Assembly (NCBI GenBank): GCA_964572095.1
Contig: CAZNGQ010000001.1
Span: 1-39,161, forward strand
Length of the DNA stretch: 39,161 bases
DNA from: an uncultured Oscillospiraceae bacterium
GTDB taxonomy: Bacteria; Bacillota; Clostridia; Saccharofermentanales; UBA5734
Direction: 5' to 3'
Part shown: in pieces, positions 20,984 to 29,647 of the stretch
How the letters are laid out: every line of letters starts with the position of its first letter
How positions within the stretch are numbered: position 1 is the first letter of the stretch
Translations under genes and position numbers: made by a program
Notes under the pieces: model-generated
What the model saw: the letters and a program-made list of their open reading frames with translations, nothing else
What the model was told of the DNA's origin: nothing
Database searches by the model: none

Positions 20984-21595
20984 TCAGTTTACCAGACGGA
21001 TGAGTCCCGCTCCGGCCAGCCCGACGAGGCCGGCGGCGACCAGAAGGGCCGGTGTTCCCTGCATGCAGGCGGGGATGCCGGCCGTTTGCATGCGGTCACG
21101 GATCGCTCCCAAAAGGGCCAGCAGGAGGACGCAGCCGCAACAGGATCCCAGCAGGAACACGGCGGAGGGCAGGAACGCCATGGCGGACAATCCGCGATCC
21201 ATGGCCGGATACAAGGCCAATGCGCCCGCCAGCAGATAGATCCGCGCATATCCGGATGGCTGCCGTTCAGCAAGACCGGACTTCAGGGAGTCACTGATCC
21301 GCCTCAACAGGAACGATATGCCGCTGAACAGCGCGAGCAGGACCAGCGGTCCCAGCAAGGCGACCGGGACCACCCCATGCAGGACGCGCAGAATGATCTG
21401 TGCCGCCAGACCGCCGGGCAGCGCGAATACGGCAACCTGCAGCCCGGTACCCAAAGCACTTTTCACGAAATCAGGACAGTGGTCCGCGTCGGCCGGGAAG
21501 AGGCCGGGCAACGTGAACAGCGGTGAGCCGATTCCGATAACGGCGATCAGGAAAAGCAGGGGAAGGCTGGCGGTCAGTTCCGGTAAAGCGGTCAT
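20984..21595 (-). CDS. rnfA: Rnf/Nqr RnfA-like integral membrane subunit (divergent)
   Basis: 203 aa with about six TM helices, in the last position of a C-D-G-E-A gene order. HCPDF resembles the conserved LCPF motif. The C-terminus (IPACMQGTPALLVAAGLVGLAGAG) resembles the RnfA tail. The start ATG overlaps the rnfE stop (ATGA). Confidence 0.6.
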   Translation of the reverse strand: MTALPELTASLPLLFLIAVIGIGSPLFTLPGLFPADADHCPDFVKSALGTGLQVAVFALPGGLAAQIILRVLHGVVPVALLGPLVLLALFSGISFLLRRISDSLKSGLAERQPSGYARIYLLAGALALYPAMDRGLSAMAFLPSAVFLLGSCCGCVLLLALLGAIRDRMQTAGIPACMQGTPALLVAAGLVGLAGAGLIRLVN

Positions 21596-22227
21596 TGTCC
21601 TGAACCTCCCGCGGACATGCCGCGTCCTTTTCCGGACAGCCAGCGCAGGCCGCCCAGCGTGAGACCGGCCAGGATCAATCCGACCGGAATCGAGACGGCC
21701 AGGTCCGCAATACGGGTTCCCGCATCCACAGATCCAAAGAACGTGCCGTACAGGATCCCTTCGCGCAAAATGCCGATCGAAACCAGGACGATGCAGAAGA
21801 AGGCGCCGGTACCGGCCAGCCGCAGGGGCACCGTGTAAATCGGGCCGTCGTTTTCGTCGTTCAGCAGGGACAAGGACTGGACAAGCAGCAGCAGCGGGGC
21901 GGCCAGCATCGGAAGCGGATGCGCATCCACCGGGATCCAGCCCGGCAGGCGGGCGACCAGCCAGACGAGCGAAGACACCGCACACCCGATGGCCACGACC
22001 GGAAGACGGCCACGGGGGAAGCGGCTCCAGCGGCGAAGCAGCTGAAGGGAGCACCAGGTAAGCAGCAGGACCGCCAGCGAGGATATCCCGACCGCCAGCG
22101 CGCTCCAGGCGTGCCCGGCAGCGGCGACCGCCGGGTAGGCGATCGCGAGGCAGGTCAGCCCTGCCGGCAGCCTGTCCGGATCCAAGTAAATCGGGATGTT
22201 GCCTTCCGACATATCGGGTTCGTTCAT
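21592..22227 (-). CDS. rnfE: Rnf/Nqr RnfE-like integral membrane subunit (divergent)
   Basis: 211 aa and polytopic. ILREGILYGTFFG resembles the RnfE 'REllG.G.l' motif. It sits between the rnfG-like and rnfA-like genes. Confidence 0.6.
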   Translation of the reverse strand: MNEPDMSEGNIPIYLDPDRLPAGLTCLAIAYPAVAAAGHAWSALAVGISSLAVLLLTWCSLQLLRRWSRFPRGRLPVVAIGCAVSSLVWLVARLPGWIPVDAHPLPMLAAPLLLLVQSLSLLNDENDGPIYTVPLRLAGTGAFFCIVLVSIGILREGILYGTFFGSVDAGTRIADLAVSIPVGLILAGLTLGGLRWLSGKGRGMSAGGSGQ

Positions 22228-22251: not shown

Positions 22252-23622
22252 TCACGATCCGGCGTCCGCCTTCGCGGAGAGAATCCACACGACATACTCG
22301 ACGGCCAGATTGGCGGCCTTGACAACCGCGCGCGACGTGACGGTCGCGCCCGACACCGCGTCGATCAGTCCGGACGCGAGGGCCGGCGTCGGTGTCGCCG
22401 CGGCAACCGCGGACATGCCGGCCTGCAACATGCAGCCGCGCATCAGGTCGAGCGCCGCCGAGACGGGTACCACGACGCCGGGTACTTCGGGAGCGCGGCC
22501 TTCGGAATCGACGGATACGACGGTGGGATCCTGCAGTTTCATCAACCAGGCGGCCATGGCCGCGGCCTGCTCCCCCCATGGGGCGCTGCCCTCGGGTACG
22601 CCGCCGCCGTCTTCCGCATCCGATCGCAGGCTGCCGTCCTCTCGCTCCGCATTCCAGACGATCGACACGATTTTCTCTTTCTCGATCGTGAGTTCGACAA
22701 AATCACGATAACCGGTCGCGGGGTCGAACTGCTCCTGCTGCGCCCGGAACAAGCCGTCGTTGAGCGTTCCGGTCAGGAGGGAGGGGATTGCCGCCTGCGC
22801 CGTACAGGTCTCCGCCAGCGTGACGAACGGCGCGACGGGAATCGTGACGCCTTCCGCCGCTCCGGTGGTGCCGTCGGCATTCACCAGGATGAAGGCGGGA
22901 TCGCCGAGCCGGATCAGAAGGGCCTCCATCGCGATGGCCTGTTCGTGCCAGGGGAGAGCGCCGTCCAGGATGTATTCGCCGTCCTGCGATGCCTTGCGGA
23001 GCGATTTGCCGCCGTCGTCGCGGACCGCGTCCCAGAGTGCGTCCGCAATACGGCCGCCCGACACTTTCATGGTGAATGTGTGGCGGTAGCCGGTCGCGGG
23101 ATCGGCAGCGGCGTCTTCCGCGGAATAGGTGCCGTCCCGCAGTGTCCTCGGCTCCGGATCGGCCGGAGGCTGTTCTCCGCGCAGGTACAGGGGAGCGGTA
23201 CGGCCTTCGAACTGGGTATGGAACACGGGGAGGGTGACGCGGCCGCCGGTCGACTCCGGTTCACCGTGGGACGCGACACGGGCGCCAAGCACCTGGTGGC
23301 CTGTCTTGTCCACCGCCACGCGGACGGTCAGGTCACTGGCGTAGCCGGGAACCTCGACCAGCAGGACATAGCCCAGGCCGCCTCCGTCGGAGGACAGCGC
23401 CTGATGGATATCCAGGATGGAGCGGGCCTTGGTGAATGTACCATCGACAAGCAGGCTTTTATACGTGTCCGCAGGAACCAGATCCTGAAAATCCTCCAGC
23501 AGCCGGCCGTACTCCCGGTTGCGTTCCCGAATGGAGCCGACCGCGTTCATGCCGGCCAGGAGCCCGATCGACACCGCGGCCATGACGACGAGATGGATCA
23601 GCTGCCTACTTCGACTTCTCAT
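22252..23622 (-). CDS. rnfG: RnfG-like FMN-binding subunit, expanded by two inserted tandem FMN_bind-like modules
   Basis: N-terminal TM helix. The RnfG-type N-lobe is (GYVLLVEVPGYASDLTVRVAVDKTGHQVLGARVASHGE). A canonical flavinylation motif DAVSGATVTS lies near the C-terminus. AGGAGG lies 8 nt upstream of the ATG at 23622. Confidence 0.75.
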   Translation of the reverse strand: MRSRSRQLIHLVVMAAVSIGLLAGMNAVGSIRERNREYGRLLEDFQDLVPADTYKSLLVDGTFTKARSILDIHQALSSDGGGLGYVLLVEVPGYASDLTVRVAVDKTGHQVLGARVASHGEPESTGGRVTLPVFHTQFEGRTAPLYLRGEQPPADPEPRTLRDGTYSAEDAAADPATGYRHTFTMKVSGGRIADALWDAVRDDGGKSLRKASQDGEYILDGALPWHEQAIAMEALLIRLGDPAFILVNADGTTGAAEGVTIPVAPFVTLAETCTAQAAIPSLLTGTLNDGLFRAQQEQFDPATGYRDFVELTIEKEKIVSIVWNAEREDGSLRSDAEDGGGVPEGSAPWGEQAAAMAAWLMKLQDPTVVSVDSEGRAPEVPGVVVPVSAALDLMRGCMLQAGMSAVAAATPTPALASGLIDAVSGATVTSRAVVKAANLAVEYVVWILSAKADAGS

Positions 23623-24532
23623 ATCGTGAGCCTCCTGTTCCGCTGGGTCTGGAGCGGGTGAAACGTTCAATGAGGGGGGAGGCGGCGTTCAGGACCAGGA
23701 TCGCCTCGAAGATTCCCGCCGGTGCCGTTCCCCACAGAATGAACAGGGCTGTCAGGAAACCGGTGCCCAGGCCGAACACCAGCCGGCCGACGCGCGTGGC
23801 CGGTGACGTGACCGGATCGGTCACCAGGAAAAACGAGCCGAGCAGGAGGCCCCCGCTGAAGAGGAACGCGACGGGATCGCCCTGAAGCAGGTATTCGCCG
23901 CCGAATGCCCAGTAGAGGAATACGGCGGAACCAAGGCTGGCCAAAGGCGCGGTGAGCAAAATCACCCCGCGCAGGTAGAGGTACGCCGCGCCCAGCAGCA
24001 GAAGCATGGCCGGCGCGGCTCCGATGGCGCCACCCGCATCGGCCGGCCCGCGGGTAAGCAGGCGGAACAGGTCCGAGCTCGTGTCGACGGTCGGAGACAG
24101 GAAAGCCGCAGGCCACACCAAGGCGATCACCGCGCGTCCGGCCAGGGCGGGGTTGAGGAAGTTTCGCCCCAGTCCGCCGAACAGCGACTTGACCACCAGA
24201 ATTGCAAACAGGGCGCCGACCGCGACGGCGGGCAGAGAAATCCCGGCCGGCAGGGTCAGCGCCAGAATCAGGCCGGTCACAGCCGCGCTTCCGTCGGACA
24301 CGGTCATCGGCTTCCGTCGCGCCAGACAGACGCAGCATTCGACACCCAGACAGACCGCGATGGAAACGGCCAGGACGGCGAGCGCGCGCATCCCGTTGTA
24401 AAAGATGGAACCGATTACGACCGGCCCAAGCGCGATCAGGACATCGCGCATCATGCCGGCGGTCGTCCAGTCCCGCGTGATGTGGGGGAAAGCGGCAGGT
24501 TCGCCCTGGATATCGCTTTTCAGCTTTCTCAT
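23606..24532 (-). CDS. rnfD: RnfD/NqrB-family membrane subunit
   Basis: Motifs DGSAAVTGLILALTLP, KSLFGGLGRNFLNPALAGR, FLVTDPVTSPAT and ILVLNAASPLIE. The start ATG overlaps the rnfC stop (ATGA). Confidence 0.8.
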   Translation of the reverse strand: MRKLKSDIQGEPAAFPHITRDWTTAGMMRDVLIALGPVVIGSIFYNGMRALAVLAVSIAVCLGVECCVCLARRKPMTVSDGSAAVTGLILALTLPAGISLPAVAVGALFAILVVKSLFGGLGRNFLNPALAGRAVIALVWPAAFLSPTVDTSSDLFRLLTRGPADAGGAIGAAPAMLLLLGAAYLYLRGVILLTAPLASLGSAVFLYWAFGGEYLLQGDPVAFLFSGGLLLGSFFLVTDPVTSPATRVGRLVFGLGTGFLTALFILWGTAPAGIFEAILVLNAASPLIERFTRSRPSGTGGSRYEKSK

Positions 24533-25836
24533 GACAGGACACCTCCGCCGGCGGAGAAAATCCGGGGCGCCAACCGGCGTTTCGCGGGGCAGGCGTACGA
24601 GCAGGCGCCGCATCCCGTGCAGACTTCGGGGTGCAGTTCCCGGATCCGTTCAGGGTCGTCGAGAAGAATCCGTTCATCGATCCGGTAGGGAAGAAGCTTC
24701 TCCGGACAGGCGCGCACACAGGCGCCGCAGCGGATGCAGACCGTCTCGGTCTCGGCAGGGGCCGGGAGGGCCAGGACAGCGGACGTGGAGGCGGTGACGG
24801 GCGTATCCCGCGACACCACCCGGCCGGTCATCGGGCCTCCGGCGACCAGGCGGTCGGACGCGTCTACCATCCCGCCGCGGAAAGCGACCAGTTCGCCGAC
24901 CGGCGTGCCCAGCGGAACGAGCACGTTTTGCGGATCCCCCATGCGGCCGCTGACCGTGACCACACGCCGGATGACCGGCATGCCGGTTTTTGCCGCGTCA
25001 TGAAACGCGAAGGCCGACGCGACGGGAACAACCAGCGCCCCGACATCCATGGCGCGCCCCCCCGCGGGAATCTCGACGCCAAGCGCCGCACGGACAAGGG
25101 AACGCTCCCCGCCCAGCGGGTAGATGCTTTTCAGGATCGAGATCCGGACATCGGTGCCCTCCACGGCGATCTTCAACGCCTGGATCGCCGCCGGACGGTC
25201 GTCCGGAAGGCACAGGACCGGGATGGCGGCTCCGGCCGCGCGCGCCAGGAGCCGCGCCGCAAAGACCGCCGGGATGGCGTTTTCACGCAGCGGGGCATGC
25301 ACGCAGGTGACATAGGGCTCGGACTCGCACGCGTCGATCAGGACGTACTCGACCGAACGGTCCATCCCGTCCCGCGTGAAGTCACGGTGGAGAGGGCTTG
25401 CGCTGCCGTCCATCCGGACCGCGCCGGCCTCGCGCATCATTCTGCGGATTTCGGCCGGTTCCAGACTCTGGGCGATATCCGCGCCGCCCAACCGGGTGCG
25501 GCGCGGCAACCCGGCGGCCGGTCGGCTGCGCCGGTTGTTCTCGATGGTGACGCAGACAGCGGGTCCGTCGGGGGTTTCGCGCCGGCCGATTCCGGTGATC
25601 CGCCCCGAGACGCTCGCATGGATGGCGACCATGTCATCATCGACCGGTTCCCCGATCACCTGGCCGAGAAGCACTTCGTCCCCCTCGGACACGGCGGCCC
25701 GCACACCGGCACGTTCCGGAAGCGGGATATGGACGGTTTTCGGGGTATAGGAAACAATGCTTTTACCATCGGTGAGCTTGCGCCCGTCATGCCCCTCCAG
25801 TGGTTGTATTCCGAAACGCAGCAGTCGGACAGGCAT
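24529..25836 (-). CDS. rnfC: RnfC-like subunit (barrel-sandwich N-domain, SLBB-like middle domain, 2x[4Fe-4S] C-domain)
   Basis: N-domain ...VAIHASVSGRITGI; DACESEPYVT; YPLGGERSL; AGGPMTG. Two ferredoxin motifs, CIRCGACVRACP and CTGCGACSYACP. GGAGGTG RBS. Confidence 0.8.
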   Translation of the reverse strand: MPVRLLRFGIQPLEGHDGRKLTDGKSIVSYTPKTVHIPLPERAGVRAAVSEGDEVLLGQVIGEPVDDDMVAIHASVSGRITGIGRRETPDGPAVCVTIENNRRSRPAAGLPRRTRLGGADIAQSLEPAEIRRMMREAGAVRMDGSASPLHRDFTRDGMDRSVEYVLIDACESEPYVTCVHAPLRENAIPAVFAARLLARAAGAAIPVLCLPDDRPAAIQALKIAVEGTDVRISILKSIYPLGGERSLVRAALGVEIPAGGRAMDVGALVVPVASAFAFHDAAKTGMPVIRRVVTVSGRMGDPQNVLVPLGTPVGELVAFRGGMVDASDRLVAGGPMTGRVVSRDTPVTASTSAVLALPAPAETETVCIRCGACVRACPEKLLPYRIDERILLDDPERIRELHPEVCTGCGACSYACPAKRRLAPRIFSAGGGVLS

Positions 25837-25848
25837 GAGGCACCTCCA

Positions 25849-27051
25849 CTAGGATCCGTAGATCCGGTCCGTCAGCACGGCATCGATACCCGGTGTGGAC
25901 TCGACACGGCCGCCGGGAAAGATCCAGATGGCGTCTATGCCCTGCATCGAATCCACGAGCGCCCGTCCCGTTTCATAGGGCAGCAGGAAAAGCGTCGAAG
26001 ACAGGAAATCGGACAGTCCGCAGTCATCCGTGAAAACCGACACCCCCCGGAAGAACGTCGCCGGCATCAGGGTGTCCCGGTCGATCAGATGACTGTAGTG
26101 GACGCTTCCCACCGTATAGTAGTTCTGGTAGTCGCCGCTGTTGCCGATCGTCCGGTCGTTCAGCATGGCGACGGCGGCATAGTCCGGCTGGCTCTCCGCC
26201 GATTGGCCGGTCTCCGGCAGGAGCGCCGACGGATTCTGCATGCCGATGCTCCAGGTCTCCTTGCCTTCCTGGAACGGACGCCCGTGCAGGATGATGCTGC
26301 TTGCTCCGCAACTGATCAGGAAAGACTGGAATCCCGCATCGGCCAGTTCCCGTTCGACGATCTCCGCGGCGAATCCCTTGGCGACCGCACCGACATCGAG
26401 CCGGATGCCGGCCTTGGCGACCCGGACGGTTCCCGCGGCCCGGTCGACCACGAGGCTGTCCATTCCGCTCGACGCGGCCGCCGCCCGCAACGCAGCCATA
26501 TCCGGCAGTACCGCGCCGGACGGATCGTTCCTGCCGGCTTTTCGGGCTTTCGACCAGATGTCCAGCATCGCCCCGAGCGTGATGTCGACCCGGTTGCCGA
26601 TGGTTTTCTGCTTGTCCTGACAGAATTCAAGCAGGTCGATGATCTCCGGGGCGACCGTGACTGCGGGACCGCCGGCCGCTGCGTTGACGGTATGGAGATT
26701 GTTCAGCCCGTCATAGGGGTTGTAGATATCGAACAGTCTGTTCAGTTCGGTGAACCGGACCTCCGCCATCGAGGCGAACCGGTCGTAATCCTCCTGGGAG
26801 CCGCAGTAGGCGATGAGGGAGATCACAGTGTCGAACAGGCCGACGATGTCGCTGGAATACCGCTGATAGCCCGCGTATTCGCCGGTGCCGGTCGTTGCCG
26901 TCCCGGACGGGTTCGCATTGCCGCACGCGAGCGGAGACGAGAGGAGTGCCAGGCACAGGAGCAGGCAGGGCAGAATGCGAAGACGATGCCTTCGCACGTG
27001 TTTTACCATCCCAAACGGTCTGTTTCCACTGTTTTTCATCGGCATACCCAT
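25849..27051 (-). CDS. apbE: ApbE-family FAD:protein FMN transferase, predicted lipoprotein
   Basis: Lipobox LLSSPLACG. ApbE motifs DVGAVAKGFAAE, IGNSGDYQNYY and YSHLIDRDTLMP. It lies 12 nt upstream of rnfC. Its first ATG shares a base with the CE15 stop (TGATG). Confidence 0.85.
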   Translation of the reverse strand: MGMPMKNSGNRPFGMVKHVRRHRLRILPCLLLCLALLSSPLACGNANPSGTATTGTGEYAGYQRYSSDIVGLFDTVISLIAYCGSQEDYDRFASMAEVRFTELNRLFDIYNPYDGLNNLHTVNAAAGGPAVTVAPEIIDLLEFCQDKQKTIGNRVDITLGAMLDIWSKARKAGRNDPSGAVLPDMAALRAAAASSGMDSLVVDRAAGTVRVAKAGIRLDVGAVAKGFAAEIVERELADAGFQSFLISCGASSIILHGRPFQEGKETWSIGMQNPSALLPETGQSAESQPDYAAVAMLNDRTIGNSGDYQNYYTVGSVHYSHLIDRDTLMPATFFRGVSVFTDDCGLSDFLSSTLFLLPYETGRALVDSMQGIDAIWIFPGGRVESTPGIDAVLTDRIYGS

Positions 27052-28112
27052 CAGGTCACGTCCAGAAAGAAATCCACGATGGCGTTCCAGTCCAGTACGT
27101 TCTGGGCATGTCCGCCGTCGCGGTAGTAAATGGCGTTCCGCCCGGGCACGCCGAGCAGGTCGAACACCGGCTGGGCCGCGCGGCTGGTGACGCCGCTGCC
27201 GACCGGATTGGACCAGTAGTCCTGGTTGCCTTCGGTTGTAATCAGCGCGCGGGGGGCGACCAGGGCCTTGAGGGTGTGCAGGTCAAAGGGAAGCCGGTCT
27301 TCGCGGCCGGAGAACGTGCGCAGCCGGTCCGCAAACCAGAACGGGAAGGCGCCGGTGATGTTGCCGAGCGTCTCGGCCTTGGGATCCATGTCCGCCGCAA
27401 ACCGGAAGCATCCGGCTCCGCCGCAGCCCGAACCGCTGGAGGTGACGACGTCGATCCGCTCGTCGAAGACGCCGGCGCAGGTGGTCGCCTTTCCGCCGCG
27501 GGAATGTCCCATGATGCAGATGCGCGGCCTGGGCGCGCCGTCCCCGCCGCGGGCCGCGATCCAGCTGTCGACCGCCATGTGCCCCCACGCCCAGGCGGCC
27601 AGGCATTTCAGGTGCAGGGAAGGGAAGCAGGGATACAGGCCAAGGCTCATGTCGTCTCCATCCGGCGCGACATCCGTGCGGTTGAACGTGATGAGCTCGA
27701 TCCCCTCGGCGACCAGCCGGTCCTCGATCGGACACGGCTCCAGGTGGTTTCCGCTGTTTTTCACGATGACCCGGGCGCCGACCGGTTTTGCCGGCAGGAC
27801 CTGGGTCGCGCGGAACGAGAAGTCCCGTCCGGTGTCGCCGACATCCCGGATGTTGATCCGGAGGAGGTTCACGGTCCGGTCTCCGCGCGACGGCAGCGTT
27901 CCCAGGATCTCCGCATCGACACGGTCGGGTATCGGCGGGATATCGCCGAACAGGTAGTGCTCTGCCATCGCCTTGAGCCGGCCGGTTTCCGCCGTCCATT
28001 GACCGGCGGTCGTGATTTTCTTGCCGTCCGGCGTTCTCAGCAGGTCGGGCAGCGCGACGACCGACGGCAGCGCGTCCGCCTCCTGGAAGCCGTATTTGTC
28101 CTTGTCGTACAT
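27051..28112 (-). CDS. CE15-like (glucuronoyl-esterase family) alpha/beta hydrolase with no signal peptide
   Basis: Nucleophile motif GHSRGGK (family consensus G-C-S-R-x-G-K). N-terminal LPDLLRTPDGKKITTAGQW resembles the CE15 N-terminus. DGGHAQ lies near the C-terminus. AGGAGG precedes the ATG at 28112. Confidence 0.75.
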   Translation of the reverse strand: MYDKDKYGFQEADALPSVVALPDLLRTPDGKKITTAGQWTAETGRLKAMAEHYLFGDIPPIPDRVDAEILGTLPSRGDRTVNLLRINIRDVGDTGRDFSFRATQVLPAKPVGARVIVKNSGNHLEPCPIEDRLVAEGIELITFNRTDVAPDGDDMSLGLYPCFPSLHLKCLAAWAWGHMAVDSWIAARGGDGAPRPRICIMGHSRGGKATTCAGVFDERIDVVTSSGSGCGGAGCFRFAADMDPKAETLGNITGAFPFWFADRLRTFSGREDRLPFDLHTLKALVAPRALITTEGNQDYWSNPVGSGVTSRAAQPVFDLLGVPGRNAIYYRDGGHAQNVLDWNAIVDFFLDVT

Positions 28113-28172
28113 GAATCCTCCTGACGTCCGGCCGACGCGAAAGCGGCCCGGACACAATCATGCCGTCCGCCG

Positions 28173-28688
28173 CTACTCGACAAACACGGCGGAATACCAG
28201 TTCTGTGGTTCATCCGGACCGGCCAGCGTCCGGATCGGCAGGCCAAACGCCCGAACGGTCTTGAACACATCGATGCCGACACTGTGGAAGGCCGGGCGCG
28301 CCTGCTTGGGAAAGCGGCACGGCTCGCCTGTGGCACATCCCGCGCAGGGGTCGCAGAGCGCGCAGTCGGACATCGAAAACGCGAAATAGTATCCGTCGAC
28401 AAACGCCTGGCGCTCGATTGACAGGGAAACCCGCTGGGCCGTGCGCTTGTCGCCGGAGTGGATGATGATCCCCCAGCGGTAGTTTCCGAGCATCTCGCGG
28501 TACTGCTGCGGCGACGGCGATCCCGGCCTTGACGGGCAGGTCGGCCCCTTGCCCCAGTCGGCGCAGCCGAACATGCACTTGAGGAGTGTGCGAGAATCGA
28601 ACGCGATGTCAGCCAGATTGAATGCGACGGCGTCCGTGGCGCCTTCCCGCAAGGCCGCCGAAATGTATTTGTCCCGATCTTCGATCAT
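28173..28688 (-). CDS. DUF2284-like predicted metal-binding (Cys-rich) protein
   Basis: Cys clusters CMFGCADWGKGPTCP and CALCDPCAGCATGEPC, followed by RPAFHSVGIDVFKT as in DUF2284/COG5423 proteins. Confidence 0.65.
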   Translation of the reverse strand: MIEDRDKYISAALREGATDAVAFNLADIAFDSRTLLKCMFGCADWGKGPTCPSRPGSPSPQQYREMLGNYRWGIIIHSGDKRTAQRVSLSIERQAFVDGYYFAFSMSDCALCDPCAGCATGEPCRFPKQARPAFHSVGIDVFKTVRAFGLPIRTLAGPDEPQNWYSAVFVE

Positions 28689-29647
28689 ACGAGTCCGCTC
28701 CCTTCGAATCCTTCGCCCAGCACCTCGCGGGTCTCCATGACGGTGACGAAGGCATTTGCGTCTTCTTCGTGGACAATCTGCTTCAACCGCTGGATCTCGT
28801 TGCGGGTCACGACGCAGATCAGCACCTGCTTGCCGTTTCCGGTGTACATCCCCCGCCCGTTCAACCCGGTGACGCCGCGTTTGATCTCGTGCAGGATGCG
28901 GGCGGCGATCGCGTCGCCGTTGTCCGAGATGATGGTCACGGACCGGCGGTAGTCGAAGCCTTCCAGTACGAAATCGATGGCCTTGGACGTCAGGTACATG
29001 GCGATCGCGGAGTACATCGCAAGGATGAAGCCGGTGTTCGCCACGTCCATGTAGGCCATGGCCGAGGCGAAGATCACGACCGCGTCCAGCACCCAGAGCA
29101 GCTGGCCGATGCTGAGCGCCTTGCTGTACTTGCGGATGATCACGGCGATGATGTCCGATCCGCCCTGCGTAAAGCCCTTGCGCATGACGATGCCGATACC
29201 GACCCCGTAGACCACGCCGCCGACGACGCAGAACAGCACCGGATCGGGGGCTCCTCCCGCCGGCGCCGCAAGGAACCGGTCATAGACTCCGGCGAAAAGC
29301 GGGTTGGTCAGGTCGATGACGAGCGCATAGACCGCGGTGCCGATCAGGCTTCGGACGACAAACCGGCGGTTGACGATCAGCATGCCCAGGAGGAACAGGG
29401 GAAGATTGAACAGGAAGACCATGGTACCGAACGGGAGGGGGATCTTGTGGCCGGCCAGCTGATAGATGATCGATACCACACCGGTGACGCCGCCCATGGT
29501 CAGGCGGACCGGAACAAAGAAGACCGTGATCGCGAACGCGCAGACCACGGAGCCGGTGATCAGCATCCCGGCTGGAACCAGCGCCTTTTTTGCGCCTTCG
29601 GCCAAACGACGCGCCCTCGGCACCATCCGGGACCTCCTGTGATTCAC
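28685..29647 (-). CDS. YitT-family membrane protein with a C-terminal DUF2179 domain
   Basis: Polytopic N-terminal part with GGSDIIAVII. The soluble tail (VTIISDNGDAIAARILHEIKRGVTGLNGRGMYTG...VVTRNEIQRLKQIV) is typical of DUF2179. Overlaps the DUF2284 gene by 4 nt. Confidence 0.8.
   Translation of the reverse strand: MNHRRSRMVPRARRLAEGAKKALVPAGMLITGSVVCAFAITVFFVPVRLTMGGVTGVVSIIYQLAGHKIPLPFGTMVFLFNLPLFLLGMLIVNRRFVVRSLIGTAVYALVIDLTNPLFAGVYDRFLAAPAGGAPDPVLFCVVGGVVYGVGIGIVMRKGFTQGGSDIIAVIIRKYSKALSIGQLLWVLDAVVIFASAMAYMDVANTGFILAMYSAIAMYLTSKAIDFVLEGFDYRRSVTIISDNGDAIAARILHEIKRGVTGLNGRGMYTGNGKQVLICVVTRNEIQRLKQIVHEEDANAFVTVMETREVLGEGFEGSGLV

Follow-up and report, generated by a model that had tools for sequence, protein, structure and literature searches.

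An RnfG-type subunit interrupted by two modules

We analyzed a window of 39,161 nucleotides (nt), positions 1 to 39,161 of contig CAZNGQ010000001.1 (assembly GCA_964572095.1), from a metagenome-assembled genome of an uncultured Oscillospiraceae bacterium that is 92% complete in 416 contigs. On the reverse strand of this window, to which all coordinates below refer, lies an Rnf-type operon in the order apbE-rnfC-rnfD-rnfG*-rnfE'-rnfA'. Our subject is rnfG* (22252..23622, stop codon included), which encodes a 456-amino-acid RnfG-type subunit carrying two nested modules. The longest reading frame at this position, 22252..23670, has 472 codons and opens at TTG. We place the true start at the ATG at 23622, giving 456 amino acids, since an AGGAGG sequence lies 8 nt 5' of it and the orthologs begin at the same position; in the alignment, all of them start with M-[RK]-[SN]-[RQK]. 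With this start, rnfG* shares its first 17 nt with the end of rnfD.

The protein begins with a predicted membrane anchor at residues 8 to 28 (LIHLVVMAAVSIGLLAGMNAV, 23539..23601), which is its sole hydrophobic segment and falls within a long helix spanning residues 2 to 48 in the AlphaFold model. This arrangement suggests a single anchor followed by an extracytoplasmic domain. Next comes the RnfG N-lobe, the N-terminal half of a canonical FMN_bind domain (residues 51 to 150, 23173..23472), which matches positions 1 to 33 of the Pfam profile and positions 2 to 139 of the rnfG model TIGR01947 and is modeled with beta strands between residues 53 and 118. The canonical flavinylation motif, DAVSGAT, is found near the other end of the protein (residues 421 to 427, 22342..22362), with the codon of the acceptor Thr427 at 22342..22344. 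The canonical domain's C-terminal helix follows from it (residues 427 to 454, 22261..22344; about positions 52 to 76 of the Pfam profile) and is modeled with block-mean predicted local distance difference test (pLDDT) values above 90 across residues 431 to 450.

Scanned as a whole, the protein matches Pfam FMN_bind at 49.1 bits (cut-off, 22), in two stretches that bracket the insert. When the insert was deleted in silico, the match became unbroken, covering profile positions 1 to 76 of 77 at 49.8 bits. Because the match is continuous once the insert is removed, we conclude that the modules are nested inside one canonical domain. They interrupt the RnfG loop directly 5' of DAVSGAT and displace the motif and C-terminal helix; close uninserted relatives of about 190 amino acids, such as P0144, have just a short loop at the same junction. 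The cut-offs of the NCBIfam rnfG models were not reached (TIGR01947, 54.1 bits against 102; NF041840, 47.6 bits against 230). We identify the protein as an RnfG from its N-terminal anchor, N-lobe, DAVSGAT loop, and place between rnfD and the rnfE homolog. Compared with canonical RnfG (7ZC6_G, 9ERI_G, 8AHX_G; TIGR01947), it shares the anchor, N-lobe, DAVSGAT loop, C-terminal helix, and position after rnfD, but it has 456 amino acids instead of about 190, and a separate canonical RnfG is encoded on contig C81.

Ancestry and putative flavinylation sites of the nested modules

Module 1 occupies residues 162 to 278 (22789..23139) and module 2 residues 288 to 402 (22417..22761); each is supported by its match to PDB 2KZX and by a module hidden Markov model (HMM), and each falls into its own clade. 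The two modules, about 115 amino acids each, align with one another over their full length (38% identity; 57% positives; E value, 9e-24), a similarity well beyond what chance would give. An earlier note on this DNA, made from the sequence alone, had described an RnfG split by two homologous tandem repeats of this size, at 22789..23136 (DGTYSAED...AETCTAQAA) and 22423..22764 (LNDGLFRAQ...RGCMLQ), followed by a canonical DAVSGATVTS at 22333..22362 with its Thr codon at 22342..22344. Translation agrees with these positions, and the full-length alignment and the rejoined FMN_bind match bear out the split.

The modules are extended FMN_bind-type domains, although they are not recognized as such directly. 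Module 1 matches the sequence of 2KZX, a 131-residue nuclear magnetic resonance structure, at an E value of 4.7e-15, and module 2 does so at 1.3e-12; the 2KZX sequence is itself a member of Pfam FMN_bind (30.5 bits; cut-off, 22). In Pfam and NCBIfam scans, the isolated modules had no FMN_bind match, and the NCBIfam scan returned weak matches to the PplA model NF041941. A profile-profile comparison of 12 modules from the clade with canonical RnfGs was not significant (E value, 0.28), aligning the flavinylation loop alone. The structural models point the same way as the 2KZX match. AlphaFold modeled the whole protein with a pLDDT of 87 and a predicted template modeling score (pTM) of 0.56, and the two modules alone with a pLDDT of 86 and a pTM of 0.74 in the best model. 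Foldseek searches with the full and two-module models matched solely 2KZX, 3O6U (CPE2226), RnfG, and NqrC, and the module fold superimposes on 2KZX and 3O6U with template modeling scores of 0.66 to 0.74. The structure 3O6U is the archetype of the "FMN-bind1" domain (Huang et al. 2024, PMC11334425), and its flavin-binding Thr position is conserved (PMC10339131). The homology of the modules to FMN_bind thus rests on the 2KZX bridge and the predicted fold. By these two routes the likeness to extracytoplasmic flavoproteins proposed in the earlier note is upheld, although the direct comparisons came out in the way that the note had named as counting against it: the isolated modules drew no Pfam match, and the profile-profile comparison was not significant. 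We make no claim of a rigid pairing of the two modules, as a pTM of 0.74 was reached in one model and the other four were poor.

Eight sequence clusters of 456 to 458 amino acids, at 47 to 60% identity, show the same architecture; they stem from metagenome assemblies made independently of each other, all from uncultured Oscillospiraceae or Clostridia. Each of the five genomes of the genus encodes a two-module RnfG. The canonical site reads D-x-x-[SA]-G-A-T in all eight full-length orthologs. In a phylogenetic tree, the module 1 copies form one clade (support, 100/99) and the module 2 copies another (98/97), which, together with their 38% identity, identifies the two modules as old paralogs. 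The separate old clades led us to reject a recent tandem duplication. Mean identity among orthologs is 0.56 for module 1, 0.50 for module 2, and 0.49 for the RnfG N-lobe, and the DG-Y strand retains its aromatic residue in both modules, as both retain the W-x-EQA helix. We also rejected decay of module 2, as its conservation equals that of the N-lobe.

Elsewhere among the relatives, the modules within one protein are near-identical in P0017, P0033, P0042, and P0015, with terminal branches of 0.01 to 0.15. This similarity suggests recent duplication or gene conversion, unlike the old pair described here.

Aligned to DAISGAT of 2KZX, the site of module 1 reads GAAEGVT (22843..22863), with Thr260 (codon 22843..22845) as the predicted second flavinylation site, and that of module 2 reads PEVPGVV (22471..22491), with Val384 (codon 22471..22473) at the acceptor position. 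A Ser or Thr is therefore present in one of the two extra domains: Thr260, in a G-V-T context that lacks the Asp, in module 1, and Val384 in its place in module 2. Across the clade, every ortholog has Thr or Ser as the module 1 acceptor (GVT, GVS, GIT, GLT, DVT, VVT), and the corresponding position of module 2 is V, D, or T. Since module 2 is as conserved as the N-lobe while its acceptor position drifts, it is a maintained domain minus the acceptor residue; module 1 is under constraint at that residue.

To judge these sites against a broader background, we drew on an exhaustive search that yielded 592 relatives, the best 150 of which were scanned with the module HMM; the clade itself is excluded from the following counts. 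Among those 150, 52 are nested RnfGs whose one to six modules precede a C-terminal S/T-G-A-S/T motif, about 14 resemble RnfG but have a single module and lack an S/T-G-A-S/T motif throughout, and 60 are tandem or lipoprotein-type proteins. The rnfG* product thus belongs to a broad and widespread family of nested RnfGs. The 52 nested RnfGs contain 76 modules, which have Ser or Thr at the site in 75 cases, Val before it in 73, and Asp at -6 in 75. The nested-module norm is accordingly D-x-x-x-G-V-[ST], and Val in place of Ala is not decay, because 73 of the 76 nested modules of relatives have it.

This comparison refines the earlier view of both sites as degenerate. The Thr is indeed kept in the first repeat (GAAEGVT) and lost in the second (PEVPGVV), but G-V is the subfamily norm, and the first repeat misses just the Asp. 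Covalent flavin mononucleotide (FMN) on Thr427 is very likely, and on Thr260 of module 1 the odds are about even. We infer that module 2, with Val384, cannot be flavinylated. This prediction (Thr427, Thr260) agrees with the expectation in the earlier note of one to two flavins and one flavin-less copy.

One further feature of the modules concerns a cysteine in the last helix, 13 residues past the flavinylation position, which is present in each nested module of rnfG* (Cys273, 22804..22806; Cys397, 22432..22434). A Cys occurs there in 20/22 modules of the clade, 47/77 modules of nested RnfGs, and 27/32 modules of RnfG-like proteins without the C-terminal motif. Among stand-alone or tandem modules it occurs in just 8 of 131, which have Ala there instead.

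The surrounding operon and the canonical Rnf genes

Together with its neighbors, rnfG* forms a cofactor-depleted Rnf paralog. The first gene, apbE (25849..27051), encodes a flavin transferase with a lipoprotein-like N terminus (Pfam ApbE, 162.5 bits), and it always comes first in the orthologous clusters compared. The rnfC paralog (24529..25836) scores 277.6 bits against TIGR01945 (cut-off, 246) and retains both C-x2-C-x2-C-x3-C-P motifs for 4Fe-4S clusters, but its glycine-rich FMN/NADH (reduced nicotinamide adenine dinucleotide) loop is changed from GxGGAGFP to RMDGSASP (25387..25425), and R-M-[DN]-G is kept in the clade. In the rnfD paralog (23606..24532), the alignment shows that the segment with the flavinylated Thr of RnfD/NqrB (window positions 24029..24100) is deleted in all five clade members; the motif is present in the canonical RnfD of the same genome (DAASMATP) and in one-insert relatives (DAVSSATP).

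The last two genes, rnfE' (21592..22227) and rnfA' (20984..21595), encode highly divergent homologs without a significant Pfam match. A six-ortholog profile of rnfE' aligned collinearly over its full length with 7ZC6_E (E value, 0.0017), and the rnfA' profile matched 7ZC6_A, likewise collinearly (2.3e-8), and NqrE (3.3e-6), with an NCBIfam match to RsxA (3e-8). Both proteins lack the two cysteines of their canonical counterparts: in the profile alignments to 7ZC6_E and 7ZC6_A, the intramembrane Fe-S Cys positions are occupied by Y/A and L/gap. In relatives, E' and A' appear fused as one protein, X, of 340 to 410 amino acids, and BLASTP of a fused X (L014) gave weak collinear matches to E' (E value, 5e-4) and A' (1e-3). 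No rnfB was found in the window cluster or in the four orthologous clusters. Because RnfB is missing and the remaining subunits have lost the RnfA/E cysteines, RnfD flavin Thr, and RnfC FMN loop, we infer that this Rnf-derived paralog cannot run a ferredoxin:NAD+ loop.

Conserved synteny extends to both sides of the operon, with a CE15-like esterase, a DUF2284 gene, and yitT upstream and convergent amidases, glmS, glmM, and cdaA downstream. The upstream genes lie at 27051..29647 on the same strand; the esterase is CE15/GCE_fung-like, lacks a signal peptide, and has a stop codon overlapping the apbE start, and this synteny is kept in L011 and L013.

A canonical Rnf is encoded elsewhere in the genome. 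Contig C81 carries canonical rnfD, rnfG, rnfE, and the start of rnfA; C172 carries rnfB, adjoining a short Rnf-Nqr piece, probably the C-terminal end of canonical rnfA; and C377 carries canonical rnfC. The canonical genes are thus spread over three contigs, with no rnfC upstream of rnfD on C81; either the assembly is fragmented here or the genes may be ordered unusually. In a whole-genome search, the apbE of the operon was the sole ApbE match. Its product is likely to mature the canonical Rnf as well, together with an FMN_bind membrane protein encoded on contig C126. We considered and rejected the argument that a dedicated ApbE proves the modules to be flavinylated, as this is the genome's only ApbE.

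The operon can be placed among its relatives. One-module relatives (L014, L053, L054) have the order apbE-rnfC-rnfD-rnfG*-X with intact RnfC and RnfD motifs, and by these features the window clade sits in the middle of a graded series between that type and the G040/G046 type. The latter is a sister family within the same taxonomic order, in which two loci, L045 (G040:C9) and L046 (G046:C39), share the gene order sigma-70 gene, rnfC', rnfD', rnfG', and a membrane protein of 380 to 410 amino acids. Their rnfG' has one module, no S/T-G-A-S/T motif, and a C terminus reading IDG-x-R/IDGLP-SEIRT, and neither apbE nor rnfB adjoins these clusters; the approximately 14 motif-less proteins among the 150 scanned are of this type.

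A proposed electron path and its alternatives

The reading that we favor, with a probability of roughly 0.55, is that the rnfG* product is anchored in the membrane, faces outward, and serves as the RnfG of a divergent complex derived from Rnf, the second in this genome, carrying FMN on Thr427 and probably on Thr260, with a flavin-less module 2, and serving a one-way electron path. ApbE would attach FMN to Thr427 and probably to Thr260. Electrons from a cytoplasmic donor would enter the Fe-S clusters of RnfC', pass by way of a noncovalent site in RnfD' to the FMN of RnfG, and continue through the module 1 FMN to an extracytoplasmic partner. Speculatively, module 2 would be kept as a folded spacer, a docking domain, or a noncovalent binding domain. 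A precedent exists for an unflavinylated RnfD-like subunit served by an RnfG-like flavin (Huang et al. 2024, PMC11334425), and the one-way path proposed here is analogous to that suggested for Nqr/Rnf-like complexes with such a subunit.

Several points weigh against this proposal. The module 1 site lacks the motif Asp and carries Glu at a position usually taken by Ser, Thr, or Ala, and in two module 1 orthologs the Gly is absent as well (ADVT, SVVT). The apbE gene may be present in the operon simply to serve the canonical Rnf, given that the genome encodes no other ApbE that the search could find. Loss of the RnfD flavin site and of the RnfC FMN loop means that a continuous electron path is not demonstrable from the sequence, and the complex might be redox-inactive in the usual sense. 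The inter-domain geometry is also uncertain, with four of the five AlphaFold models of the module pair being poor.

A simpler possibility, which we consider the leading rival but still unlikely, is that Thr427 alone is flavinylated and both modules are flavin-less relics retained for structure, docking, or another ligand. Besides the missing Asp, the Glu at -3, and the Gly lost in two orthologs, this explanation would fit the failure of Pfam to recognize either module, the loss of cofactor sites across the operon, and the RnfG-like proteins of sister family f2 (G040/G046), which have no S/T-G-A-S/T motif and still keep one module. It fits less well with the Thr or Ser found in module 1 of every ortholog while the module 2 position drifts, and G-V-[ST] is the family norm. 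Mutations of an ApbE substrate, as the JBC 2025 review (PMC12052999) summarizes them from Bertsova 2019, are also relevant: flavinylation is abolished by T-to-A, falls to about 50% with A-to-V, and is little affected by D-to-A, so that in the substrate tested neither of the last two changes abolished the reaction.

The depletion of the operon could go further, leaving an Rnf derivative without electron transfer that acts as an ion channel, scaffold, or sensor and whose modules bind free flavin or cell-wall components. Such a role would suit the absence of RnfB and the losses within the other subunits (the RnfA/E cysteines, RnfD Thr, and RnfC FMN loop), as well as the adjoining cell-wall genes (two Amidase_3 genes, glmS, glmM, and cdaA). 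However, the RnfC 4Fe-4S motifs and the RnfG D-x-x-[SA]-G-A-T are strictly conserved in the clade and apbE always heads the cluster, and we regard this explanation as improbable. That the gene is an artefact, a frameshifted or misassembled fusion of rnfG with a separate gene for a two-domain FMN_bind lipoprotein, has next to no probability left, even though stand-alone two-module lipoproteins exist (P0013, P0014) and the genome is fragmented into 416 contigs. The canonical domain is split, with the C-terminal motif and helix following the modules in the same frame, and the comparative data refute a fusion: eight independent clusters of 456 to 458 amino acids at 47 to 60% identity share the architecture and conserved synteny, and 52 further nested representatives are known. 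The possibility of a frameshifted fusion, raised in the earlier note as an objection to its own reading, can thus be set aside.

A broader view, which is tentative and which we hold to be rather unlikely, is that the locus belongs to an undescribed graded series of Rnf-derived complexes in Clostridia, organized as rnfC-rnfD-rnfG*-X and never with rnfB. Along this series the internal cofactors of the pump would have been lost stepwise while the nested modules and the RnfC Fe-S clusters were kept; the complex of this genus would conduct electrons one way, with flavins on RnfG* alone. The last-helix Cys of the nested modules would then endow the outer face with flavin-thiol chemistry instead of plain electron hopping.

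The proposal of an outward-facing flavinylated RnfG has clear parallels among published systems. Multi-flavinylated RnfG has been described in RNF gene clusters, and the extra FMN_bind domains were proposed to open for Rnf a second route by which electrons reach extracytosolic acceptors (Meheust et al. 2021, eLife, PMC8238504). The protein here is alike in having extra FMN_bind domains on the outer face of RnfG, but one of them has no acceptor and the other a weakened motif, and RnfB, the defining marker of RNF in that paper, is absent from this cluster. The topology is the same as that of the "circularly permuted" multi-FMN-bind1 proteins (Huang et al. 2024, mSystems, PMC11334425, Fig. 3B), whose published example is described as double-flavinylated, whereas there are three domains here with a predicted occupancy of at most two. 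With stand-alone FMN-bind1 proteins, namely 2KZX (A3DHT5, C. thermocellum), 3O6U (CPE2226), and PplA-type lipoproteins (NF041941), the modules share the DG-Y, GYR/GWK, W-x-EQA, and QDP motifs. The stand-alone proteins, however, read D-A-[IV]-S-G-A-[TS] at the site, in contrast to GAAEGVT and PEVPGVV here, and have Ala rather than Cys in the last helix. Finally, the Nqr/Rnf-like two-subunit complexes (Meheust 2021; Huang 2024), for which one-way electron export has been proposed (PMC8238504; PMC11334425), also pair a flavinylated subunit resembling RnfG with an RnfD-like one from which the flavinylated Thr is absent. In those complexes, however, RnfD is fused to an NqrF-type NAD-binding domain and there is no RnfC, RnfA, or RnfE, while RnfC', RnfE', and RnfA' are encoded here by separate genes. 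Multi-flavinylated RnfG and circularly permuted multi-FMN-bind1 proteins are therefore already published, and this is not a new kind of system. New here is that three features occur together: a site that is weakened yet selectively retained, a sister module that is conserved although flavin-less, and an Rnf paralog that is depleted of cofactors and has no RnfB.

Nested RnfGs tend to occur in RnfB-less Rnf derivatives, and they are easily overlooked. They escape screens based on the number of Pfam FMN_bind matches or of S/T-G-A-S/T motifs; the protein described here would go unnoticed in a domain count because Pfam finds a single FMN_bind domain in it. The prevailing idea is that additional flavin domains on RnfG enable anaerobes to send electrons from the Rnf pump beyond the membrane. 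In that setting, rnfG* offers a natural comparison within one protein, between a canonical site, a weakened G-V-T that is kept by selection, and a sister module whose acceptor drifts. This comparison could reveal which features of the motif are required by ApbE, and also whether an FMN_bind domain devoid of flavin has its own function.

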